A stretch of DNA of 64,000 nt from assembly GCA_024679065.1 (NCBI GenBank), contig JAGIQG010000043.1, forward strand, positions 868,001-932,000, in the 5' to 3' direction. Origin of the DNA: Sphyrna mokarran (lineage: Eukaryota). Positions 2,451 to 62,572 of this stretch are shown piece by piece. The stretch's first letter is position 1; the number at the start of each line of letters is the position of its first letter. The notes beneath the pieces were generated by a model. That model saw nothing but the letters and a program-made list of their open reading frames with translations, did no database searches and had not been told where the DNA came from. The position numbers and the translations under genes were made by a program.

Positions 2451-2789
2451 TTACAGTGTCTCAGATCGCCTTGTCCCAGTCTCCGGCGGTTCAGACACTC
2501 TCTGTCGGAAGTCCTGTTAAATTAAGGTGTCGTACCCAGGGTCAAGCTTCCAGCTATTTTCATTGGTACAGACAGAGAGAAGGAAACGGCATGGATTTGG
2601 TTTACAAAGCGTTCCAGAAAATTTCAGCTAAGGGGAGGTTTTCCAGCGAGATTTCTGAAAAAGCAGACATCTGTTCACTGATCATTGCAGATTCCCAGAA
2701 AAATGATTCTGGGGTGTATTACTGTGCAATCCCGGAATTTCAAAATGCGTTCTATTTATTCGGAAATGGCTCCAAGTTAGTGATTACAG
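2451..2789 (+). CDS. Gene A: germline-joined V+J Ig V-set exon of a non-rearranging antigen-receptor-like receptor
   Basis: Polypyrimidine acceptor ...tctttcctag|TT at 2450/2451 and donor ACAG|gtaaat at 2789/2790, phase 1-1, 339 nt. Translates to TVSQIALSQSP...VKLRC...WYRQ...GRFS...DSGVYYCA...FGNGSKLVIT, with canonical Cys, Trp, DxGxYYC and an FGxG J-type motif in one exon. No RSS seen. Confidence 0.93.
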
Positions 2790-2885: not shown

Positions 2886-3185
2886 CGGGTTCTCCCACCA
2901 TATTCCTCCTCACCCCACCACTGGATGAGATTCCCGCCATGGAAAGGGTCCCGTTATTGTGTTTGGTCAGAGGCGTGTCTCCCGATTCCGTTCCCGTCCG
3001 CTGGAATGTTTCGGGGCGGGATGCTGAGGGGCAGACCGATTCGGGGACACTGGAGCCGGACGGAACCTACACCGTCAGGAGTTACATCAGCGTCTCGCAG
3101 GAAACTTGGAGAAGCGGCGCTCGTTTAACTTGCGCCATTCAGGTCAACTCCGGTGAAAGTATTCTCAGTGCCTCAACTCAGAGAG
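2886..3185 (+). CDS. Gene A: Ig C1-set domain exon
   Basis: Acceptor tttag|CG at 2885/2886, donor AGAG|gtaact at 3185/3186, 300 nt, phase 1-1. SPTIFLLTPP...LLCLVRGVSP...VRWNVSG...DGTYTVRSYISV...W.SG...TCAI shows C1-set hallmarks. Confidence 0.92.
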
Positions 3186-5989: not shown

Positions 5990-6109
5990 ATTCTCCGTTC
6001 CCCACCACATGCAGTATCGTGTTTTCCGGCGGGTTGTCGGCCACGGCACTTCTCTTTCTAGGATTGGTTCTTGTGGCCGGAAGAAGGATCTTCAAGAACC
6101 GGCAGAGAG
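5990..6109 (+). CDS. Gene A: connecting peptide and transmembrane exon (DSPFPTTCSIVFSGGLSATALLFLGLVLVAGRRIFKNRQR)
   Basis: Acceptor tttttgtag|AT and donor AGAG|gtagcg, 120 nt, phase 1-1. Hydrophobic stretch followed by basic residues. A same-length homologue lies at 44967-45086 (-). Confidence 0.88.
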
Positions 6110-6248: not shown

Positions 6249-6307
6249 GAGCAGCGAACAGTGATGACGAGCTGACAGAATCCAGGGAACACAAGCAAAA
6301 TAAAGAG
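6249..6307 (+). CDS. Gene A: cytoplasmic exon 1 (GAANSDDELTESREHKQNKE)
   Basis: tctagcag|GA...GAG|gtgaat, 59 nt, phase 1-0. A 59-nt homologue lies at 44789-44847 (-). Confidence 0.85.
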
Positions 6308-8388: not shown

Positions 8389-8433
8389 ACACTCTACGCT
8401 CACCTGGCCTTTAACAAGGATCCAACAGTCTAA
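8389..8433 (+). CDS. Gene A: terminal coding exon with tyrosine motif (TLYAHLAFNKDPTV*)
   Basis: ttttcatctacag|ACA, phase 0, stop TAA at 8431-8433. Homologous to 43025-43069 (-), which encodes TDYARLAFNKNPTL*. Confidence 0.85.
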   Translation, partial: TLYAHLAFNKDPTV

Positions 8434-23389: not shown

Positions 23390-24737
23390 CAGTCCCAGTT
23401 TCTGCTGTTTTGGAAAAGAACAGGCTCTTCTTCCAATATTGACCTGGAGTCCCAGTTGAACAATGTACGTACAGACACCGCTACTTCTCCAGAATTACCC
23501 CGACACCATTACATGACTTTTGCTGTTGTAGGTCCCGTCCTCCTCCATTTTCCTGGGATCAGTTGATCTCACAATGACCAGGCCGGAAATATTCCAGAAA
23601 ATAGCAACCTGGTAGGAGAAACTCTACAGACCAAATACACGAAGAGCACATTCTGTTTGAAACTCAGCTCACCCGATGGCACAAAAAAAATGGCCGTCTT
23701 GTTGGTGGCACTATCTGGGAAGAAACTGGGGACAGTTCACGATTAATGCGCACAAAAAATAATGCTGCGCGCAACCTGAATGAATTTCATTTGCCCTCTT
23801 ACCTCCAATCAGGAGGGTGTGTCCATTCCGGAGCAGTGCAGACCCAGATACACGTGGACAGTATAGGAATCCAAGATATTCGTCTGGACATTGCGAATTT
23901 TCAGAATCAATACATCCTCTGGATTGCCTTTTTTTTCAGAAATAAACTTGCAGTTGTCCGTAGTGCACGATTTTCTGCTCATTAAAAAGATGCTTCACCC
24001 AGACGCTGTCGGTTACTTGCATATTCCGGAACCAAATTCAATTTATACGGCGAATGACAGGACAATTCCACCGTCTAGCCCACTGAAACTGTCATTGTGA
24101 AGAGGATCTGAGGCAGGCAGGTTTCGGATTCTGTAACTGGAGAGATTATTGTCACATTGTTATCGATTCTTGAAACATTCGGAGACGCCTCTTAAAAAAG
24201 AAATGCCTGTATTTAAATGTTAATTTATTTCTGTCACAAATATGCTGGCATTAACATTGCAGTGGATTTACAGTGAAAAATCCCCGCGTCTCCACACACC
24301 GGCGACTTTCGAATACACCGAGGGAGAATTTTTAGTCTCGCCAATGCACAAAATCAGCAAGTCTTTTGGAGCAAACCGGAGCAGCCAGAGGAAATCCGGG
24401 CAGACGGGGGGAGTACATGCAGACTCCACAGAGAGTGACCCAAATTGTGTATCGAACCCGGATCACTGGCGCTGGGAGGCAGCAGTGCCATGCACTAAAT
24501 AATCTCATTGTTCTTTCTGGCTCTACTTATTTTCCTTTCTTCATCGGTGGAACCACTTAACTAACTGATATGATCAGATCAAATGCTTCCACCTGACCAC
24601 TGGCTCACGTTTGCCGTGTAGAAAACTTTCATTCTGGTTTATAAAATTGCTTCTACTTAAAAAGAATCCTACACGCCTCTTACTGTGAAACAACAGTGCT
24701 TGCAAAATGAGTATCAGAGATACAAAGTCTTGGACAT
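23390..24737 (-). pseudogene. Pseudogene C: degenerate leader (24684-24737), VJ exon (23803-24136) and C1 exon (23390-23714) of a related VJ-C1 gene
   Basis: Splice sites are intact and the V-C intron is 88 nt. V: ...VSVG*TVELSC...RQRLGEA...LILKIRNVQ...GFLYC...LRNGHTLLIG, with stops and frameshifts. C1: ...VAIFWNISG...EEDGTYNSKSHVMVSG*FWRSSGVCT aligns with gene A VRWNVSG...EPDGTYTVRSYISVSQETWRSGARLT. The leader encodes VSLILILQALLFH|gtaag, out of frame with its ATG by 1 nt. Confidence 0.8.
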
Positions 24738-26034: not shown

Positions 26035-28116
26035 TAGAACATAGAACATAGAACATTACAGCACAGAACACGCCCTTCGGCCTTCGATGTTCCGCCGACC
26101 ATTATAAAATGCAATGACCCTCCAAACTAAACCATTCCCTTCTCTTCCATAAACTTAACAACTAACCTCTTAAACGCCACCAAACTTGGCGCATCTACAA
26201 CTGCCGCAGGCAGGGCATTCCACTCCCTAACCACCCTCTGGTAAAGAACCTACCTCTGATATCCGTCCTATAACTATCACCCCTTAATTTAAAGCTGTGT
26301 CCCCTCGTGCTAGCTTTTTCCATCCTAGGAAAAAGGCTATCACGGTCCACCCTATCTAAACCTCTAATCATCTTATATGTTTCGATCAGGTCTCCTCTTA
26401 GCCGCCTCCTTTCTAACGAAAACAACCTCAAATCCCTCAGCCTCTCCTCATAAGACCTGCCCTCCATACCAGGCAACATCCTGGTAAACCTCGTCTGTAC
26501 CCTCTCCAATGCCTCCACATCTTTCTTATAATGTGGGGACCAGAACTGCACACAATACTCCCAAGTGCGGCCGCACTAGAGTTTTGTACAGTTGCAACAT
26601 GACGTTGCGGCTCCGAAATTCAATCCCCCTACCAATAAAAGCTAAGACTCCATATGCCTTCTTACAACCTTATCGACTTGACTGCCTACTTTCAGGGATC
26701 TATGCACAAATACACCAAGATCCCTCTGTTCATCAACACTATTAAGAATTCTACCATTAGCCCTATACTCTACACATTTATTATTCCTGCCATAGTGCAT
26801 TACCTCACACTTTTCCACATTAAACTCCATTTGCCACCTCTCGGCCCAGCTCTTCAACTTGTCCAAGTCTCTCTGCAAACTATAACACCCCTCTTCACTA
26901 TCTACCACTCCAACGACTTTAGTGTCATCTGCAAATTTACTAATCCATCCTTCAATACCCTCATCCAGATCATTTATAAAAATTACAAACAGCAGGGCCC
27001 CAAAACAGATCCCTGAGGTACACCACTTGTAACCGAACTCCACGATGAATAACTTCCATCAACCACCACCCTCTGTCTTCTATCTGCTAGCCAATTCCTA
27101 ATCCAATTAGTTAAATCACCCTCCATCCCATACATCTGCATTTTCTGCAGAAGCCTTCCATGGGACACCTTATCAAACGCCTTACTAAAGTCCATATATA
27201 CCACATCAACTGCCTTACCCCCATCCACCTCCTTGGTCACTTTTTCAAAAAACTCAATGAGGTTAGTAAGGCACGACCTACCCTTCACAAAACCCTGCTG
27301 ACTATCCCCAATCAATTCATTTCTCTCTAAATAACTATAAATCCTATCCCTAATAATTCTCTCCAATACTTTGCCCACAACAGAAGTACGACTCACTGGC
27401 CTATAATTCCCTGGAAGGTCTCTCTTCCCCTTCTTGAACAACGGGACCACATTCGCTATCCTCCAGTCCTCCGGAACCACACCCGTAACCAACGACGAAC
27501 TGAAGATCAGAGCCAGAGGCTCTGCAATCTCCTCTCTTGCCTCCCAGAGAATCCTAGGGTAAATCCCGTCCGGCCCAGGGGACTTATCCAACTTCAAACC
27601 CTCGAGAATTTCTAGCACCTCCTCCCTATCTACTACAATACTTCCCAATTTGCAACCCTGTACCTCAGTGTTCTCCATAGCTACATTTCCAGCACTCTGC
27701 GTGAATACCGAAGAGAAATATTTATTCAGTGCCTCTCCAATCTCTTCAGGCTCCACGCACAACTTCACACTGCTGTCTATGACTGGCCCTAATCTTGCCC
27801 TAACCAATCTTCTACTCTTAACATATCTAAAGAAAGCTTTAGGATTCTCCTTAATCCTATCAGCCAAAGTCTTCTCGTGTCCCCTCTTAGCTCTCCTCAA
27901 CTCACTCTTTAGCTCCCTCCTGGCTAATCTATAGCTATCCATTTCGCTAACCGAGCCTTCAAGCCTCATCCTGACATAAGCCTCTTTTTTCCTTTTAACC
28001 AGCGAACCAACTTTTTTCATACACCAAGGTTCCCTTACTCGACCATTTCCTTCTTGCCTGACAGGGACATACTTATCAAGGACTCACAGCAGCTGCTCCT
28101 TGAATAAGCTCCACAT
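26035..28116 (-). mobile_element. CR1 LINE, 3' part of an interrupted host element
   Basis: ORFs 26983-28020, 26642-27043 and 26195-26551 encode RT ([33 protein letters not shown]). Confidence 0.93.
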
Positions 28117-31100
28117 AAAATTTCTGTCTTGGAGGCTACAGTTGAGGAAGAATCAACTGGAGCTGACCAAAGTGAGCAGGTCTCTGGGGGTGAGCCTGCT
28201 GAGAATGCTCAGGTGGGTGGGGGGAATAAGAGATTAGGCTTAGTTATAGGAGACTCCATAGTTAGAGGGACAGATAGGAGGGTAAATAGTAATAAACAGG
28301 ACTCAGGGCTGGTGTGTTGCCTCCCAGGGGCTGGGGTCCAGGATGTTGCAGATCGGGTTTTTAAGATTCTTAAGGGTGAGGGGAGTCAGCCCCAAGTCAT
28401 AGGTCATGTGGGGACACATGATGTAGGTAGGACAAGGGAAGGGGATATTAAACAGAAATTTATGGAGTTAGGGGGGAAGCTTAGGTCCATAACAGGCAGA
28501 GTGGTTATCTCTGGACTCTTGCCTGTGCCAAGAGATAGTTTAGAGATGAACAGAGAAAGGGATAGTTTGAACTCATGGCTGCGTGGATGGTGCAGGAGGG
28601 AGGGGTTCAGGTTCCTTAACAATTGGGACTCATTCTGGGATAGGTGGGACCTCTTCAAGAGCGATGGTCTACACCTGAACCAGAGGGGGACTAATATCTT
28701 GGGGGGAAAATTTGCTAAGGCTATGATGGGGGCTTTAAACTGATTCGGGGGGGTGGGATCCTAAGTAGTTGGGGTGCTGAGAGGGATGAGAGTAAGGGGG
28801 TTATAGAAGAGAGTTGTAAAACACAGCGGCGTACGGGTGGGGTGGGGCATGGTTTGAGATGCGTATACTTTAATGCAAGGAATATTCGCAATAAGGGGGA
28901 GGAACTTGCAGCTTGGACCAGTACTTGGAACTTCGATGCTGTGGCCATTTCAGAGACTTGGGTAGAGCAGGGACAGGAATGGATGTTGCAGGTTCCGAGG
29001 TACAAATGCTTTAGTCGGAGTAGAGAAGGAGGTAGAAGGGGGGGAGGAGTGGCATTATTGGTCAAAGACTGTATCACGGTGATAGAAAAGAAGTTTGATG
29101 AGGACTTGTCTGTTGAGGTAGTATGGGCTGAGATTAGAAACAGGAGAGGAGAGGTCACCCTGTTGGGAGTCTTTTACAGACATCCTAATAGTTCTAGAGA
29201 GGTTGAGGAAAGGATTGCAAAGTCAATTCTGATTAGGAGTGAAAGTAGTAGGGTAATTGTGATGGGGGACTTTAACTTTGCTAATATTGATTGGAATAGC
29301 GATAGCTCTAGCTCGTTAGAGGGGTCAGTTTTCGTACAGAGTGTGCAGGAAGGTTTTTTGAATCAGTATGTAGATAGGCCAACTAGAGGTGAGGCTACAT
29401 TGGATTTGGTGCTGGGCAATGAGCCAGACCAGGGGTTAGGCTTGGAAGTTAGTGAACATTTTGGTGATAGTGACCACAATTCGGTTACGTTCACCTTAGT
29501 GATGGATAGGGATAGGCATGAAGCTGGGGGCAGTAGTTATAGCTGGGGGAAGGGTAATTATGAGGCCATCAGGAGAGAATTAGGGTGCATAGATTGGACT
29601 AGGAAATACAGGGACTGGGAACATCTGGAATGTGGAGCTTATTCAAGGAGCAACTGCTGCGAGTCCTTGATAAGTATGTCCCTGTCAGGCAAGGAGGAAA
29701 TGGTCGAGTAAGAGAACCTTGGTGTACGAGAAAAGTTGATTTGCTGGTTAAAAGGAAAAAGGAGGCTTATGTCAGGATGAGGCTTGAAGGCTCAGATAGT
29801 GCAATGGATAGCTATAGATTAGCCAGGAAGGAGGTAAAAAGTGAATTGAGGAGAGCTAAGAGGGGACACGAGAAGATGTGGGCTGATAGGATTAAGGAGA
29901 ATCCTAAAGCTTTCTTTCGATATGTTAAGAATAGAAGATTGGTTAGGGCAAGATTAGGGCCAGTCATAGACAGCAGTGGGAAGTTGTGTGTAGAGCCTGA
30001 AGAGATTGGTGAGGCACTGAATAAATATTTCTCTTCGGTATTCAAGCAGAGTGCTGGAAATGTAGCTATGGAGAACACTGAGGTACAGGGTTGCAAATTG
30101 GGAAGTATTGTAGTAGATAGGGAGGATGTGCTAGAAATTCTCGAGGGTTTGAAGTTGGATAAGTCCCCTGGCCGGACGGGATTTACCCTAGGATTCTCTG
30201 GGAGGCAAGAGAGGAGATTGCAGAGCCTCTGGCTCTGATCTTCAGGTCCTTGTTGGTTACGGGTGTGGTTCCAGAGGACTGGAGGATAGCGAATGTGGTC
30301 CCATTGTTTAAGAAGGGGAAGAGAGACCTTCCAGGGAAGTATAGGCCAGTGAGTCTTACTTCTGTGGTGGGCAAGGTATTGGAGAGAATTATTAGGGATA
30401 GGATTTATAGTTATTTAGAGAGAAATGAATTGATTGGGGATAGTCAGCATGGTTTCGTGAAGGGTAGGTCATGCCTTACTAACCTCATTGAGTTTTTTGA
30501 GAAAGTGACCAGAGAAGTGGATGGGGGTAAGGCGGTTGATGTAGTATATATGGACTTTAGTAAGGCTTTTGATAAGGTGGCCCATGGAAGACTTCTACAG
30601 AAAATGCAGATGTGTGGAATAGAGGGTGATTTAGCTAATTGGATTAGGAATTGGCTGGCCGATAGAAGACAGAGGGTGGTGGTTGATGGGAGATATTCAT
30701 CGTGGAGTTCGGTGACGAGTGGGGTGCCTCAGGGGTCTGTTTTGGGGCCACTGCTGTTTGTAATTTTTATAAATGATCTGGATGAGGGTATTGAGGGATG
30801 GATCAGTAAATTTGCAGATGACACTAAAGTCGGTGGAGTGGTAGATAGTGAAAGAGGGGTGTTATACTTTACAGAGTGACTTGGACAAGTTGCAGAGCTG
30901 GGCCGAGAGGTGGCAAATGGAGTTTAATGTGGAAAAGGGTGAGGTAATGCACTTTGGCAGGAACAATAAATGTGTAGAGTATAGGGCTAATGGTAGGCTC
31001 TTAATAGTGTTGAGGAACAGAAGGATCTTGGTGTATGTGTCAATAGATCCCTGAAAGTAGGCAGTCAAGTGGATAAAGTTGTTAAGAAGGCATATGGAGT

Positions 31101-31698
31101 CTTAGCTTTATTGGTAGGGGGATTGAATTTAGGAGCCGCAGCATCATGTTGCAACTGTACAAAACTCTAGTGCGGCCGCACTTGGAGTATGGTGTGCAGT
31201 TCTGGTCACCACATTATAAGAAAGATGTGGAGGCATTGGAGAGGGTACAGAGGAGGTTTACCAGGATGTTGCCTGGTATGGAGGGCAGGTTCTATGAAGA
31301 GAGGTTGAAGGATTTGAGGTTGTTTTCGTTAGAAAGGAGGCGGCTAAGAGGGGATCTAATTGAAGCATATAAGATGATTAGAGGTTTAGATAGGGTGGAC
31401 AGTGATAGCCTTTTTCCTAGGATGGAGAAAGCTAGCACGAGGGGACACAGCTTTAAATTAAGGGGTATGAGTTATAGGACGGATATCAGAGGTAGGTTCT
31501 TTATCAAAGAGTGATTAGGGAGTGGAATGCCCTGCCTGCAGCTGTTGTAGATGCGCCAAGTTTGGTGGCGTTTAAGAGGTTAATTGATAAGAATATGGAA
31601 GAGAAGGGAATGGTTTAGTTTGGAGGGGCATTGCTTTTTATTTTGGTCGGCACAACATCGAAGGCCGAAGGGCCTGTTCTGTGCTGTATTGTTCTATA
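28117..31698 (+). mobile_element. Long CR1 LINE: ORF1 C-terminal SGNH/GDSL esterase-like domain and frameshifted ORF2 (APE endonuclease + RT)
   Basis: ORF1 has VIGDSIVR, HVGTHD and DGLHLN. ORF2 has AISETW, MGDFN, LDLV, SDHN, then RT motifs; TTCTAT tail at about 31690. Confidence 0.95.
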
Positions 31699-32206
31699 TC
31701 AGATGTTCCCAGTCCCTGTAGTTTCCTAGTCCAATCAACGCACCCTAATTCTCTCCTTATGGCCTTATAATTACCCTTCCCCCAGCTATAACTACTGCCC
31801 CCAGCTTCATGCCTATCCCTATCCATCACTAAGGTGAATGTAACCGAATTGTGGTCACTATCACCAAAATGTTCACTAACTTCCAAGCCTAACACCTGGT
31901 CTGGCTCATTGCCCAGCACCAAAGCCAATGTAGCCTCACCTCTAGTTGGCCTATCTACATACTGAGTCAAAAAAACCTTCCTGCACACTTTGTACGAAAA
32001 CTGACCCCTCTAACGAGCTAGAGCTATAGCTATTCCAATCAATATTAGTAAAGTTAAAGTCCCCCATAACAATTACCCTATTACTTTCACTCCTGTCCAG
32101 GATTGACTTTGCAATCCTTTCCTCTACCTCTCTAGAACTTTTAGGAGGCCTATAAAAGATTCCCAACAGGGTGACCTCTCCTCTCCTGTTTCTAATCTCA
32201 GCCCAT
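31699..32206 (-). mobile_element. CR1 endonuclease fragment, 5' part of the interrupted host element
   Basis: Corresponds to element positions immediately upstream of where 26035-28116 begins. Confidence 0.88.
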
Positions 32207-41027: not shown

Positions 41028-41903
41028 TAGAACATAGAACATAGAACATTACAGCACAGAACAGGCCCTTCGGCCTTCGATGTTGTGCCGACCAAAATAA
41101 AAAGCAATGCCCCTCCAAACTAAACAATTCCCTTCTCTTCCATATACTTATCAATTAACCTCTTAAACGCCACCAAACTTGGCGCATCTACAACAGCTGC
41201 AGGCAGGGCATTCCACTCCTAATCACTCTTTGAGTAAAGAACCTACCTCTGATATCCGTCCTATAACTCATACCCCTTAATCTAAAGCTGTGTCCCCTCG
41301 TGCTAGCTTTCTCCATCCTAGGAAAAAGGCTATCACTGTCCACCCTATCTAAACCTTAATCATCTTATATGTTTCAATAAGGTCTCCTCTTAGCCGCCTT
41401 CTTTCTAACGAAAACAACCTCAAATCCCTCAGCCTCTCTTCATAAGACCTGCCCTCCATACCAGGCAACATCTGGTAAACCTCCTCTGTACCCTCTCCAA
41501 TGCCTCCACATCTTTCTTATAATGTGGCGACCAGAACTGCACACAATACTCCAAGTGCGGCAGCACTAGAGTTTTGTACAGTTGCAACATGATGCTGCGG
41601 CTCCTAAATTCAATCCCCCTACCAATAAAAGCTAAGACTCCATATGCCTTCTTAACAACTTTATCCACTTGACTGCCTACTTTCATGGATCTATTGACAC
41701 ATACACCAAGATCCTTCTGTTCCTCAACACTATTAAGAGCCCTACCATTAGCCCTATACTCTACAGATTTATTGTTCCTGCCAAAGTGCATTACCTCACA
41801 CTTTTCCACATTAAACTCCATTTGCAACCTCTCGGCCCAGCTCTGCAACTTGTCCAAGTCACTCTGTAAACTATAACACCCCTCTTCACTATCTACCACT
41901 CCA
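41028..41903 (-). mobile_element. CR1 3' portion inserted inside an HE1-type SINE (40900-42105)
   Basis: ORF 41429-42049 has RT C-terminal motifs; the SINE sequence is split around it. Confidence 0.88.
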
Positions 41904-43024: not shown

Positions 43025-43069
43025 TTAGAGCGTTGGATTCTTGTTGAACGCCAGTCGGGCGTAATCTGT
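43025..43069 (-). CDS. Gene B: terminal coding exon with tyrosine motif (TDYARLAFNKNPTL*)
   Basis: ttttcatccacag|ACA, phase 0, TAA stop. ATTAAA on the minus strand near 42842-42847 may be the polyA signal. Confidence 0.85.
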   Translation of the reverse strand, partial: TDYARLAFNKNPTL

Positions 43070-44788: not shown

Positions 44789-44847
44789 CTCTTCATTCTG
44801 TTTGTATTCTCTGGAACTTGTCAGCTCCTCGCCATTGTTCACGGTGC
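44789..44847 (-). CDS. Gene B: cytoplasmic exon 1 (GTVNNGEELTSSREYKQNEE)
   Basis: ctttctaacag|GC ... GAG|gtgaat, 59 nt. Confidence 0.85.
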
Positions 44848-44966: not shown

Positions 44967-45086
44967 CTCTCTTCCGCTTCCTGTAGGCCCATCTCCTGGC
45001 CACAAGAACCAATCCCAGAAGGAGGAGTGTCGCTGCCGACAAAGCCCCGGAAAGCAGCAACATGCATTTAGTCCGGAACGCAGAAT
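44967..45086 (-). CDS. Gene B: transmembrane exon (DSAFRTKCMLLLSGALSAATLLLLGLVLVARRWAYRKRKR)
   Basis: cttttgcag|AT ... AGAG|gtagcg, 120 nt, phase 1-1. Conserved Cys and uncharged TM. Confidence 0.88.
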
Positions 45087-46383: not shown

Positions 46384-46689
46384 CTCTCTGAGCTGCGACA
46401 CTCTCACTGAAAAGATGATCACCAGAGTTGACCTGAACGGCGCAAGTACAGCAAGCGCCGCTGCTCCAAGTTTCCGCCGAAACACTGATGTAACTCCTGA
46501 TGGTATAGGTCCCATCCGGTTCCAGTGCCCCTGAATCGGTCTGCCCCTCGATATCCCTCCCCACAGCATTCCAGAGGATGGGAAAGGAATCGGGAGACAA
46601 ACCTCTGACCAAACACAACAACGAGACCCTTTCCATGGTGGGAATCTCATCCAGCGGCGGAGTGAGGAGGAAAATGTTAGGAGAGTCCG
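46384..46689 (-). CDS. Gene B: Ig C1-set domain exon
   Basis: tttag|CG ... AGAG|gtagtt, 306 nt. 72 of the first 90 residues are identical to gene A C1 (manual count). Confidence 0.92.
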
Positions 46690-46874: not shown

Positions 46875-47213
46875 CTGTGATCACTAACATAGAGCCGTTT
46901 CCGAATATCAATTCTCTGACCGTGTAATGGCGCACTGCACAGTAATACATTCCAGAATCGTTCCTCTGGGTATCGGCAATGATCAGGGAATACTTATCTT
47001 TTTTGTCAGAAACCTCACTGGAAAATCTCCCTTCTGCTGGGAGGTGATTGCTCGTGATGTAAAGCAGCTTCATGCCGCTATTCTCCCTCTTTTTGTACCA
47101 GTAGACATAATCAATACCTAAGAGCTGGATGTGACAGCTGAGTTTAACATAATCCCCCACCTGGAATGTCTGAACTGGCGGAGACTGGGACAAGATGGAC
47201 TGCGACACTGAAA
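46875..47213 (-). CDS. Gene B: germline-joined V+J Ig V-set exon (paralogue of gene A)
   Basis: Minus-strand acceptor tttccag|TT and donor ACAG|gtaaat, 339 nt. SVSQSILSQSP...VKLSC...WYKK...GRFS...DSGMYYCA...FGNGSMLVIT; 61/112 residues identical to gene A V by manual ungapped alignment. Confidence 0.93.
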
Positions 47214-48439: not shown

Positions 48440-49915
48440 AGTAGAACATAAAACAGCACAGTACAGGCCCTTCGGCCCTCGATGTTGCGCCAGCCAGTTG
48501 ACCCTCTAACCTAAACTATTCCAATATCATCCATATGCCTATCCACCGACCATTTGAATGTCCCCAAAGTAGGCGAGTCCACAACTGCTGCAGGCAGGGC
48601 ATTCCACGCCCTCACCACCCTCTGTGTAAAGAACCTGCCTCTGACATCCGTCATATAACTACCACCTCTTAATTTAAAGTTATGTCCCCTCGTGTTGGTC
48701 ATCACCATCCGAGGAAAAAGGCTCTCACTATCTACCCTATCCAGTCCTTTGATCATCTTATACGCCTCAATTAGGTCACCGCGTAACCTTCTTCTCTCTA
48801 ATGAAAATAACCTCAGGTCCCTCAGCCTGTCCTCATAAGGCCTTCCCACCATACCAGGCAACATCCTGGTAAACCTCCTCTGCACCCTTTCCAATGCTTC
48901 CACATCTTTCTTATAATGCGGAGACCAGAACTGTACGCAATACTCCAAGTGCGGCCGCACCAGAGTTTTGTACAGTTGTAACATAACCTCACGGCTCCTA
49001 AATTCAATCCCTCTACCAATAAAAGCTAACACACCGTACGCCTTCTGAACAACTTTATCAACCTGGGTGAAAACTTTCAAAGAGCTATATACTTGTACTC
49101 CAAGATACCTCTGCTCAACAACACTATTAAGGATCCTTCCATTAGCCCTATATTTCATATGCCTGTTATTCCTACCAAAGTGAATCACCTCACACTTACC
49201 CGTATTGAATTCCATTTGCCACCTCACGGCCCAGCTCTGCAACCTATCTATGTCCCTCTGAAAACTGTAACATCCATCCTCGCTGTCTACAACTCCCCCC
49301 ACTTTGGTATCGTCAGCAAATTTACTAATCCAACCCTCTACACCCTCATCTAGGTCATTTATAAAAATGACAAAAAGCAGTGGCCCTAAAACAGATCCTT
49401 GAGGTACACCACTTGTAACTGCACTCCAGGTTGAATATTTCCCATCAACCACCACCCTCTGTCTTCTATCAGCTAGCCAATTCATAATCCAAACTGCTAA
49501 ATCACCTTCAATCCCATGCATCTACACTTTCTGCAGTAGCCTACCATGGGGAACCTTATCAAACGCTTTGCTAAAATCCATATACACTACATCAACTGCC
49601 TTACCCTTATCTACCTCTTTGGTCACCTCCTCAAAAAACTCAATAAGGTTTGTGAGGCACGACTTACCCTTCATAAAACCCTGCTGACTATGTCTAATCA
49701 ATTTATTTCTCTCTAGGTGCTTATAAATCCTATCCCTTAAAATTTTTTCCAAGACTTTGCCCACAACAGAAGTCAGGCTCACTGGTCTATAATTTCCAGG
49801 ATGGTCCCTACTCCTCTTTTTGAACAAAGGGACAACATTTGCCATCTTCCAGTCTTCCGGCACTATACCTGTAGCCAACGACGACATGAAGATCAAAGCC
49901 AAAGGCTCTGCAATC
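48440..49915 (-). mobile_element. CR1 LINE, RT to 3' end (in-frame stop between ORFs 49522-49902 and 48511-49521)
   Basis: Complete RT motif set and 3' tail. Confidence 0.93.
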
Positions 49916-51284
49916 TTACATTAACCCTATAACGAAGTAACTCTGAAAATCTTCTCGTCGCCACATTCTTGTGCCTGGTCGCGTCATTGAGAGAAAATTT
50001 AGCAACATCAATGCACTTCACCAGTACGTCTTTTGGGCTTTGGGAGAAAACCAGAGCACTCAGAGGACACCCACACAGACACGGGAAGAAAGTGCAGACT
50101 CCACACAGACTGTGATCTAAGTCGGGAATTAAACAACGATCCCTGTTTCTGTGAGGCAATAATGCTGCTCTCTATGCCACCGTGCCACCAGATTTTTCAT
50201 GGTGCAAGGATTAGTGAACCATGTGGCATAGATTTAAGGTAAGGGACAGGATGTTTGGAACCATAGGGTCCCTACTAAGCCAAAGGAGACTCCAAAGGAG
50301 ACTCTCTGAAAGGACGCCTTAACCAAAATCTGTTTTCAGATCTTTTACTCATTTTTTGAACCAAGGCTGGAAAGAAGTAGTTATCTGTGGAACTCTATGC
50401 CGCAGAAGGCTGTGGATGACACGTCATTGAGTGTCTTTAAGACAGAGATGGATAGATTATTGATTCATATGAGAATTGGATGTTATGGGGAAAAGGCAGG
50501 TGTATAGGGATGAGGAAAATATCAGCCATGATTGAATGGCAGGTCAGAATCAATGGGCGAGTGGCCTAATTCTGCTCATTTGTCTAATGGTTTTATGCCC
50601 TTATGATTGCACCGTTTTAATGCTTACATTCTAATAGCAGAAACCAACTCAATTCTCCCGTAAATCTGGGATAAATGCCAGAGTGGACACATGAGGACTT
50701 TCTATTTTATGTTATTATTATTCATTCACGGGGCATGGGAGTTGTTGGCAGGTTACCATTTATTGCCCATTCCTATTTGCCCATGAAAAATTCTGGAATC
50801 ACACTTAGGCCAGGCCAGACAAGGAATGGCAGATATCTTTTGCTAAAGGACATCTGTGAACCACATGTTTTTTTTCTTCCCCAACAATGCAGAATGATTT
50901 CCGAATCATGAATATATTCTTAATTCCAGGTATTTGTGCATTGAATAAATTAAAGAATTTCTTCACAGCAACATTTTTTTTTTCAGAGACTATATTCTGC
51001 CAACTATACTTATCTCTTATTGTTCGCTATCTTTGGTCACTTATCTTTTATCCACAGTTGGTGCTTGGCCTAAAATTCTGATAAAAAAAAACCCTCATCT
51101 CCAAAACTGCCCATATTGTCAATGTAGTAAACACACATCTTTTATTCTGGGGCAAGGGAATTAGAACCCGAGCCATGTGTTCAATTCTAACCTTTGAGCG
51201 AATGTCTGTGTGGAGTTTGAACGTTCTTCCCGATTCTGTGTTGGTTTTCTCAGGGCGCATCCGTTCATTTCCCCACTCCAAAGA

Positions 51285-58766: not shown

Positions 58767-59458
58767 GAAGGATCTTGGTGTATGTGTCAATAGATCCCTG
58801 AAAGTAGGCAGTCAAGTGGATAAAGTTGTTAAGAAGGCATATGGAGTCTGAGCTTTTATTGGTAGGGGGATTGAATTTAGGAGCCGCAGCATCATGTTGC
58901 AACTGTACAAAACTCTAGTGCGGCCGCCCTTGGAGTATTGTGTGCAGTTCTGGTCGCCACATTATAAGAAAGATGTGGAGGCATTGGAGAGGGTACAGAG
59001 GAGGTTTACCAGGAATGTTGCCTGGTATGGAGGTCAGGTCTTATGAGGAGAGGCTGAGGGATTTGAGGTTGTTTTCGTTAGAAAGGAGGCAGCTAAGAGG
59101 GGACCTTATCGAAACATATAAGATGATTAGAGGTTTAGATAGGGTGGACAGTGATAGCCTTTTCCTAGGATGGAGAAAGCTAGCACGAGGGGACACAGCT
59201 TTAAATTAAGGGGTATGAGTTATAGGACGGATATCAGAGGTAGTTTCTTTACTCAAAGAGTGATTAGGGAGTGGAATGCCCTGCCTGCAGCTGTTGTATA
59301 TGCGCCAAGTTTGGTGGCGTTTAAGAGGTTAGTTGATAAGTATATGGAAGAGAAGGGAATGGTTTAGTTAGGAGGGGCATTGCTTTTTATTTTGGTCGGC
59401 ACAACATCAAAGGCCGAAGGGCCTGTTCTGTGCTGTATTGTCCTATGTTCTATGTTCT
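58767..59458 (+). mobile_element. CR1 3' portion
   Basis: Near-identical to 31020-31698. Confidence 0.92.
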
Positions 59459-59669
59459 AATTCCGTGTTTGCAATCGTCTCTTTCTTCTCAATCCTTAAT
59501 CGTAGCTTGTTTTAGAAAGAAGAACTCCTAGCTATTCAATGTTCACTGATAGTTAAAAGCTTTCAGATCTGCTGTCAATGTTGTGAATATTTCGAACAAC
59601 TATTCCATCGGCATCTTTATCATTACCAGATTAGGAAGCTCCGTGCTCTGTTTTCTAAGTCGGTAAGAA

Positions 59670-60140: not shown

Positions 60141-61124
60141 TCATCTGAGATGGTCCACCTGATATCATTAGATACGTGTGGTATTTTGCAAAATGTGCTC
60201 AGTGCGTTCCCACGCTTGGGCCTGCAGTAAACAGGAAAACCACAGAGAGCTTTCGACATCAATTTTATTTTCCAAAACCAATCGTGGATGTATTAATAAA
60301 CACAGAGCATAGCATTCACACTGAATATTTCACGCCTCCTTCACAGAAAGTACAAGACCGATTTCGGAGTGAGATTTGGATTGAGATTCACACTCCCACC
60401 GATTGGGTCAAGGACAATGAGTTTGTTTGGCGTCTGTGCATTGCTCCATCTCTTCCAGGGTGAGATATGCTTGACAAATTGTGGTAAAACGCATTCGGAC
60501 TTCTATACGGTAAATAGGGAGATACTAATTCCATTGCGGGTCTGTGATCAGAGAGACGCAGTTTTTGAAGTAAATCAGTAGCAATAACATATCCGGAGAC
60601 GGGAAGAATTATTTTAAACCTATTATTGCAAAATGAAGCGGCTGTTAATACGGGCGGTGTAAACAGATTCAAAGGGAGATTCGCGTGAAAAAAAAAATGT
60701 GATGAGAACAAAAATTTCAGAGGTATGGGGGAAACAAGAAAAGAGGGATTAGATAAATCTGTCAACGATGCAGCAGAGACACTGATGGCGGAACTGTCCC
60801 GAACTGTGCTCTGCAGTAATGTGATTGTGCAGTTTGGCATACACTTTAATATGAAACAAATCAAATATTAACAAAGTGGAAAATGTTGTATGTAAATTAA
60901 TAGCAATTCATGGAAAGGATATAAACAGAATCATCAAATGCCGAATTGAGCATGCCCAATCGACATATCTTTGGAGACAAAAGCGCGATGTAGTTTGGCC
61001 AATCCCCCTAACCCGCAATCTGTGGAAAATAAGGGGTAATTTAGCATGGCCAATAATCCTAAACTACACATCTTTGGACTTTAAGGGGCAATTTAGCACG
61101 GCCAATCCGTATCTCTTACAAGTT

Positions 61125-62572
61125 CTGGGAGGACTGGAGGATGGCGAATGTGGTCCCACTGTTTAAGAAGGGGAAGAGAGACCTTCCTGGGAATTATAGG
61201 CCAGTGAGTCTTACTTCTGTGGTGGGCAAGGTATTGGAGAGAATTATTAGGGATAGGATTTATAGTTATTAGAGAGAAATGAATTGATTGGGGATAGTCA
61301 GCATGGTTTCGTGAAGGGTAGGTCATGCCTTACTAACCTCATTGAGTTTTTTGAGAAGTGACCAAAGAGGTGGATGGGGGTAAGGCGGTTGATGTAGTAT
61401 ATATGGACTTTAGTAAGGCGTTTGATAAGGTGGCCCATGGAAGACTTCTACAGAAAATGCCGATGTGTGGAATAGAGGGTGATTTAGCTAATTGGATTAG
61501 GAATTGGCTGGCAGATAGAAGACAGAGGGTGGTGGTTGATGGGAGATATTCATCGTGGAGTTCGGTGACAAGTGGTGTACCTCAGGGTCTGTTTTGGGGC
61601 CCCTGCTGTTTGTAATTTTTATAAATGATCTGGATGAGGGTATTGAGGGATGGATGAGTAAATTTGCAGACGATACTAAAGTTGGTGGAGTGGTAGATAG
61701 TGAAGAGGGGTGTTTTAGTTTACAGAGTGACTTGGACAAGTTGCAGAGCGGGGCCGAGAGGTGGCAAATGGAGTTTAATGTGGAAAAGTGTGAGGTAATG
61801 CACTTTGGCAGGAACAATAAATGTGTAGAGTATAGGGCTAATGGTAGGGCTCTTAATAGTGTTGAGGAACAGAAGGCTCTTGGTGTATGTGTCAATAGAT
61901 CCCTGAAAGTAGGCAGTCAAGTGGATAAAGTTGTTAAGAAGGCTTATGGAGTCTTAGCTTTTATTGGTAGGGGGATTGAATTGAGGAGCCGCAGCATCAT
62001 GTTGCAGCTGTACAAAACTCTAGTGCGGCCGCACTTGGAGTATTGTGTGCAGTTCTGGTCCCCGCATTATAAGAAAGATGTGGAGCATTGGAGAGGGTAC
62101 AGAGGAGGTTTACCAGGATGTTGCCTGGTATGGAGGGCAGGTCTTATGAAGAGAGGCTGAGGGATTTGAGGTTGTTTTTCGTTAGAAAGGAGGCGGCTAA
62201 GAGGGGACCTAATCGAAACATATAAGATGATTAGAGGTTTAGATAGGGTGGACAGTGATAGCCTTTTCCTAGGATGGAGAAAGCTAGCACGAGGGGACAC
62301 AGCTTTAAATTAAGGGGTATGAGTTATAGGACGGATATCAGAGGTAGGTTCTTTACTCACAGAGTGATTGGGGAGTGGAATGCCCTGCCTGCAGCTGTTG
62401 TAGATGCGCCAAGTTGGGTGGCGTTTAAGAGGTTAGTTGATAAGTATAGGGATGAGAAGGGAATGGTTTAGTTAGGAGGGGCATTGCTTTTTATTTTGGT
62501 CGGCACAACATCGAAGGCCGAAGGGCCTGTTCTGTGCTGTATTGTTCTATGTTCTATGTTCTATGTTCTATG
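61125..62572 (+). mobile_element. CR1 LINE, RT to 3' end (frameshifted), inserted in a SINE
   Basis: Near-identical to 30275-31698. Confidence 0.93.

Follow-up and report, generated by a model that had tools for sequence, protein, structure and literature searches.

Two paralogous genes, which we call A and B, lie 44 kb apart on opposite strands of the window, the whole 64,000-nucleotide stretch of Sphyrna mokarran DNA analyzed here. Their V domains are alike in the frameworks and share almost nothing in the loops equivalent to CDR1, CDR2, and CDR3. The original prediction read this pattern as a germline-encoded ligand-binding site diversifying under positive selection, in effect an antibody-like repertoire without recombination. 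The locus raises the question of whether its loops have been diversified by selection, and whether the genes that carry them form a repertoire of that kind.

Genes A and B Encode Joined VJ-C1 Receptors

Both genes encode receptors comprising a leader, a joined VJ domain, a C1 domain, a transmembrane segment, and a tail with a tyrosine motif, the leader exon of gene B being the one part not located. No leader for gene B was found in the readable sequence upstream of it, where the window contains a stretch of N. The features below are given in window coordinates unless C1027, the contig that carries the window, is named; A and B belong to family 1.

C1027 ~867548, + strand: gene A leader exon, ~450 bases upstream of the window start
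2451..2789, + strand: gene A V exon, 339 nt, V-set fold, with an AG acceptor before 2451 and a GT donor after 2789
within 2451..2789, + strand: J motif (FGNGS) of the gene A V exon, V and J being joined in one exon
2531..2563, + strand: gene A CDR1-equivalent loop, codons 27-37
2555-2557, + strand: gene A codon 35, in the CDR1 loop, one of two sites flagged by the site models
2606..2626, + strand: gene A CDR2-equivalent loop, codons 52-58
2726..2758, + strand: gene A CDR3-equivalent loop, codons 92-102
2750-2752, + strand: gene A codon 100, in the CDR3 loop, the positively selected site with the best support
2886..3185, + strand: gene A C1-set exon, starting 96 nt after the V exon
5990..6109, + strand: gene A transmembrane exon, with one Cys before the membrane segment and no charged residue within it
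6249..6307, + strand: gene A first cytoplasmic exon
8389..8433, + strand: gene A last coding exon, with TLYAHL, an ITSM/ITIM-like motif
23363..24137, - strand: broken copy of a second family, between A and B, its V and C1 exons carrying stops and frameshifts
43025..43069, - strand: gene B last coding exon, with the tyrosine motif TDYARL
44789..44847, - strand: gene B first cytoplasmic exon
44967..45086, - strand: gene B transmembrane exon, with a membrane-proximal Cys and an uncharged core
46384..46689, - strand: gene B C1-set exon
46875..47213, - strand: gene B V exon, with loops at 47133-47101, 47058-47038, and 46938-46906
60418..60460 (bounds approximate), + strand: leader exon of a third family-1 gene, whose V exon lies just beyond the window end, at C1027:932846

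The window also contains LINE sequence. A LINE 3′ fragment occupies 1640-2312, inside the first intron of gene A, and five further copies of it, at 94-96% identity, lie at 26035-26699, 31047-31708, 41028-41690, 58794-59459, and 61899-62571. Longer LINE frames are present at 26983-30879 and 48511-49920.

Loop Divergence between A and B

In an ungapped alignment, the V exons of A and B share 61 of 112 residues, divided into 59/84 in the frameworks and 2/28 in the loops, which reproduces the counts first given; the C1 identity, put at 72/90, comes to 71/90 (73/96) in our own ungapped count. The loop bounds, originally set by eye, coincide with Kabat light-chain L1, L2, and L3, minus one shared alanine. 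When that alanine is included, identities are 3/29 in the loops versus 58/83 in the frameworks (Fisher p = 1.7e-8), so the contrast is not due to chance.

Selection cannot be read from the A/B pair, whose loops are saturated at synonymous sites as well. Third codon positions differ in 19 of 28 loop codons versus 26 of 84 framework codons, and NG86 gives pS 0.75 and pN 0.61 in the loops. Synonymous divergence is thus equally raised in the loops of this pair, which was the observation named beforehand as telling against selection, and a pairwise dN/dS was set aside as uninformative.

The pair is among the most extreme of its family, owing to gene A. Among the 300 paralogue pairs, 72 have 55-63 framework identities, and loop identity within these ranges from 0 to 20 of 28, the three lowest values all involving gene A. 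In a branch test, gene A has a loop omega of 2.1-2.5 versus 0.16-0.34 in the framework, with p = 0.15 without its broken sister copy and p = 0.03 with it. The test does not separate selection from a faster neutral loop rate, which fits equally well. The near-total difference between the A and B loops would represent two long paralogue branches added together, with that of A unusually fast in the loops.

A Cluster of Two Interleaved Families

Family 1 has at least 43 copies in the genome, at least 36 of them on C1027; the V exon is open in 33 copies, and the other 10 are broken. A second VJ-C1 family, with at least 41 copies, at least 34 on C1027, is interleaved with it. Both copy numbers are lower bounds, as the genome searches scored the best 150 of 461 and the best 150 of 183 candidates. 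On C1027, which is only 2.86 Mb long and not placed on a chromosome, the cluster spans 2.2 Mb and about 70 genes. MHC class I matches fall on C1548 (49/49), with none on C1027 or C894.

The two families alternate, with 53 switches of a possible 69 (shuffle mean 35), and neighboring copies of the two share a common history (Mantel r = 0.66, 15 pairs), which co-duplication suffices to explain. On the 26.5-Mb contig C894, at 2365087-2386266, one family-1 gene and one second-family gene lie head to head, 20 kb apart, as a single pair that may mark the ancestral locus. The cluster has grown by tandem duplication, and its copies have often died or exchanged sequence. V and J are joined in the 339-nt family-1 exon, which carries FGxG, and RSS-like sites were found at none of the 26 V exons scanned.

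Copies on the small contigs C1404, C782, C851-C853, C868, and C891 are identical to C1027 copies or to one another, and several C1027 copies are mutually identical at distances of 10-250 kb. Identical copies reflect either recent duplication or assembly redundancy, and exact duplicates may be assembly haplotypes. An Arg lies within the hydrophobic stretch of 6 of the 33 family-1 transmembrane exons seen (L059, L118, L120, L126, L129, L135), and these copies may signal otherwise; L129 also has a tyrosine-motif exon downstream.

At ~0.96-1.33 Mb and 1.70-1.73 Mb of C1027 (L036-L040; L061-L071), a family-1 subgroup has lost the usual D-strand G-R-F motif, and its second-family neighbors are likewise the most divergent of theirs. 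In five of these neighbors (L061-L065), Phe replaces the first V cysteine while the frames remain open. Second-family V exons, for example L080:1501-1833 (-), carry an additional Cys-x4-Cys pair around CDR2, and most copies have QNG where the FGxG J motif is expected; their CDR3 core YAPL is common to several other sharks.

RefSeq models from Mustelus and further sharks and rays, automatically named as Ig or TCR, are the database proteins nearest to A and B. The layout recurs in relatives from turtles, a caecilian, a newt, sturgeon, gar, coelacanth, and lungfish. In a C1 tree, the shark's own Ig/TCR-type C1 domains form a clade that excludes the family C1 domains (97/94). The teleost proteins P0022 (Coregonus) and P0023 have a related C1 and a VJ-C1-TM-tyrosine layout, and one teleost model, which apparently fuses two adjacent V-C1 genes, hints that a two-gene unit persists in bony fish.

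Tests of Selection on the Loops across Both Families

We fitted codon likelihood models (own code, GY94 type, F3x4) to 25 distinct open V exons of family 1, excluding 10 broken copies, 6 exact duplicates, the C894 outlier, and one near-duplicate; from the second-family sets, 19 of 41 copies (broken, duplicate, outlier, or without C1 in the sequence examined) were excluded. With a single synonymous rate, the Kabat loops have omega 1.29 versus 0.56 for the framework (p = 0.012 against omega = 1), and the loops drawn by eye have omega 1.33 (p = 0.005). The loop estimate is 1.27 (p = 0.029) without A and B and 1.35 with F1x4; when C1 is added, the loop, framework, and C1 values are 1.38, 0.62, and 0.47. 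The omega of C1 is 0.47-0.50 overall, and its synonymous rate is 0.87 times that of V (p = 0.17), which leaves homogenization of C1 unsupported as the cause of its higher identity. Divided by structure, omega is 1.29 in the CDR loops, 0.82 in other loops (p = 5e-5), and 0.44 in strands. With RSS-like sites at 0/26 exons, this ranking bears out the part of the original prediction that described the diversity as germline encoded, non-rearranging, and concentrated in the loops.

Site models locate the excess. The M7 versus M8 comparison, by which the prediction was to be checked, gives 2dL 11.7 (p = 0.003, 25 open V exons), M1a/M2a gives 11.8 (p = 0.003), and M8a/M8 gives 10.4 (p = 0.0006). M2a assigns ~2% of sites to omega 3.2, these being codons 35 (CDR1) and 100 (CDR3), and places about two thirds of V sites in the neutral class; M8 also flags codons 44, 46, 60, and 72 at posteriors of 0.6-0.7. 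With a site-specific synonymous rate, codon 100 has beta 4.5 and alpha 0.6 (p = 0.005, uncorrected), and its codons contain no CpG. The second family (22 copies) has loops at 1.52 versus 0.53, again with one CDR1 and one CDR3 site flagged, and seven horn shark paralogues, whose loops were read from the ungapped layout, vary in the same loops. Simulations of a recombination null with neutral loops and three discordant segment trees never reached the observed M2a statistic (0/49; 11.3 observed, largest 10.2), and reached the partition statistic in 1/49 and omega 1.29 in 2/49; under this neutral-loop null, 5/49 partition tests give p < 0.05.

Positive selection on the loops, as originally claimed, has modest support at the family level that is not robust to giving the loops their own synonymous rate or to tree-free estimation. 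With its own synonymous rate, the loop omega of the 25 copies is 1.19 (p = 0.26); free-rate values are 1.12-1.19 in most sets and 1.02-1.43 overall, never differing from 1 (p 0.15-0.93), and the second family gives 1.22 (p = 0.23). Tree-free loop pN/pS is 0.89-1.28, and 4/4 confidence intervals span 1. The loop synonymous rate in family 1 is itself not significantly raised (x1.11, p = 0.50). The signal rests mainly on two sites. No FEL site survives correction for 112 tests, the 11 copies outside the main clade, A and B included, have no site-model signal (2dL 0.44), and removal of the most divergent clade weakens it to 2dL 5.5. The CC′ loop, at omega 1.31, is as fast as the CDRs, and C′′D has 1.15. 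Recombination is detected in the cluster (PHI p = 0.006 in main-clade V), and the V and C1 trees mutually reject one another. On the terminal branches of seven broken copies, the loops have omega 1.42 versus 0.62 for the framework, the same contrast as in open copies; the broken copies may have died too recently to serve as a neutral control.

Relaxed constraint might account for all of this, with loops drifting neutrally at omega about 1 in a birth-and-death cluster while gene conversion and a slightly higher local substitution rate feign an excess. Free-rate and tree-free tests that never reject omega = 1, the large neutral class (about two thirds of V sites), a loop synonymous rate of x1.1-1.4 in both families, the gene A branch, explained equally well by selection and by a faster neutral loop, the detected recombination, and the loop/framework contrast in broken copies all agree with it. 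However, the M2a statistic exceeds 49/49 recombination nulls, one CDR1 and one CDR3 site are flagged in each family independently, and at codon 100 beta lies far above alpha in codons free of CpG. We consider relaxation alone somewhat unlikely and read the pattern as release from constraint throughout the loops, with probable positive selection at a few positions.

We conclude with moderate confidence that A and B belong to a cluster of shark VJ-C1 membrane receptors that do not rearrange, with tip loops under almost no purifying selection and, at a few positions, likely under mild diversifying selection. As innate, likely inhibitory receptors, they would track variable ligands. The loops would form the ligand site, and binding at their tips would bring the tail tyrosines to phosphatases, damping the cell; selection would come from change in the ligand or in a pathogen.

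Structure and Proposed Chain Pairing

A single-sequence fold of the V domain (pLDDT 44) was replaced by an alignment-based model. AlphaFold, given a 34-row alignment, predicts a V-set fold with confidence (pLDDT 90); its nearest structural matches are TCR and light-chain V domains, and the fold is TCR-alpha-like, with a TM of 0.88 to a TCR chain. Sites were placed on this model by secondary structure and presumed Kabat equivalence, which puts codons 35 and 100 at the start of strands C and G. Equivalents of the V-V interface are largely kept in family 1, and conservation falls on the mid-sheet residues that a V-V dimer would bury. Both families have a membrane-proximal Cys.

A predicted complex of two Mustelus chains, one from each family, scores a weak 0.53 versus 0.00 for the best of three controls, with runs agreeing in at least 76% of contacts and a partner pLDDT of at least 74. 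A passing mark no higher than 0.60 was obtained for 5/78 solved pairs and for every one of the 4 mismatches that passed, and likeness to solved TCR and Fab dimers alone could explain the score. Family-1 chains would pair with the interleaved second-family chains in a TCR-like manner, through V-V and C1-C1 contacts and a membrane-proximal disulfide. A bolder proposal, which we regard as tentative and rather doubtful, is that the two families supply the two chains of a TCR-shaped disulfide-linked heterodimer, with ~26 x 20 germline chains combinable and selection acting at one CDR1 and one CDR3 position per chain, in the center of a shared binding site. If true, the cluster would be an extant V-domain receptor system, combinatorial without RAG and coupled to inhibitory signaling.

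The Cluster and the Repertoire Proposal

To call the cluster an antibody-like repertoire, as was originally done, overstates the case: its members are membrane proteins with one tyrosine-motif tail, a CDR3 of fixed length, and an NYQNM-like CDR3 core common with horn shark. CDR3 has 11 residues in 27/27 aligned open V exons of family 1, the second family having a few length variants, and the main-clade core recurs, as RNYQNM or NNYQNL, in three of seven horn shark paralogues. No AID footprint was seen in the germline, where third-position changes at WRC/GYW stand at 0.93 versus 1.16 in relative terms (means only, few sites).

A germline antigen-binding repertoire like the joined light chains of skate would have many fixed V genes, combinatorial pairing, clonal expression, and perhaps hypermutation. 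The TCR-alpha-like V fold (TM 0.88) and the two alternating chain types suit such a system, as do, in copies that are not independent of one another, a serine AGY:TCN ratio of 27:21 in the loops versus 64:228 in the framework and a WRC/GYW density of 0.139 versus 0.098; Raja (PMC2192082) offers a precedent. We nevertheless judge it very unlikely, given the fixed CDR3 length and shared core, only about 26 distinct open family-1 genes, the tyrosine-motif tail and uncharged transmembrane segment of A and B, a C1 that does not group with the Ig/TCR-type C1 domains of the shark (97/94), and WRC/GYW third-position changes not raised in the germline (0.93 versus 1.16). Ligand binding by the GFCC′ sheet face of a monomer or homodimer, in the manner of PD-1 or NKp30 and with the CDR labels overlapping the selected surface only in part, is the least credible reading and hardly to be expected, for although codons 35 and 100 begin strands C and G, the CC′ and C′′D loops are fast (1.31 and 1.15), and M8 also flags 44, 46, 60, and 72, the mid-sheet residues that would lie within a V-V dimer are those conserved and the CDR loops as a set outpace other loops.

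Comparison with Known Receptors

Among the closest known systems are the PRARP genes, non-rearranging VJ-C1 receptors treated by Fu and colleagues in J Immunol in 2019, which are said to form a gene pair in chicken and to be listed from species other than sharks. PRARP is reportedly a disulfide-linked homo- or heterodimer, and its species range approximates that of the same-layout relatives found here. The likeness, drawn by layout, extends to the joined VJ exon without RSS, the single C1, the transmembrane segment, the ITIM/ITSM-like tail, and two chain types side by side; in contrast to the chicken gene pair, about 70 genes with diversified loops lie here on one contig. No protein named PRARP is among the database matches. 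In PMC10751288, PRARP is listed among VJ genes in the MHC. Our verdict is a cluster of PRARP-like innate receptors under relaxed constraint and probable mild diversifying selection.

The ectodomain of the teleost NITRs is V or V-I, the second domain being I-type. Here the second domain is instead C1-set, and there are two interleaved chain types with a membrane-proximal Cys; the fixed CDR3 length, a germline in which no AID footprint was seen, and the membrane form with one tyrosine motif match the pattern of an innate receptor cluster such as NITR. PMC7916673 describes NITRs as non-rearranging joined-VJ type I proteins, inhibitory and activating, in a birth-and-death cluster with a diversified germline V family, and the title of a paper cited there attributes their diversification to positive selection.

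For the germline-joined light chains of skates and sharks (PMC2192082 and PMC2193156), at least 89 joined VJ-C clusters are reported in Raja, with differences concentrated in the CDRs and replacement changes above neutral ones. A CDR-diversified repertoire without rearrangement is already in print for skate light chains (PMC2192082). Unlike germline-joined Ig light chains, which have two domains and no transmembrane segment, the genes here have transmembrane and signaling exons and a C1 outside the Ig clade. UrIg (three C1, secreted) and UrIg2 (nine or more C1) are, in PMC12227049, non-rearranging elasmobranch genes with a single-exon VJ followed by C1, each described as having one paralogue, in the MHC and the Ig/TCR complex; the genes in the window have one C1 exon each and a tyrosine tail, and dozens of copies exist. 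T cell receptor chains differ in having a split V/J with RSS and charged transmembrane residues, which A and B lack.

A full-text literature search, covering main texts rather than supplements and with Fu 2019 and Ohta 2019 outside it, returned no description of the shark cluster, and within the literature so searched the family seems undescribed in sharks. Loop rates of this kind are usual in clusters of innate receptors, which makes the selection signal by itself no surprise. It is genes of the joined-VJ/C1 type that the RAG transposon is proposed to have split (PMC12227049). The shark cluster, with its two chain types, is a natural test of the limits of V-domain diversification without rearrangement, and its outcome here is loops of fixed length with substitution rates just above neutral.
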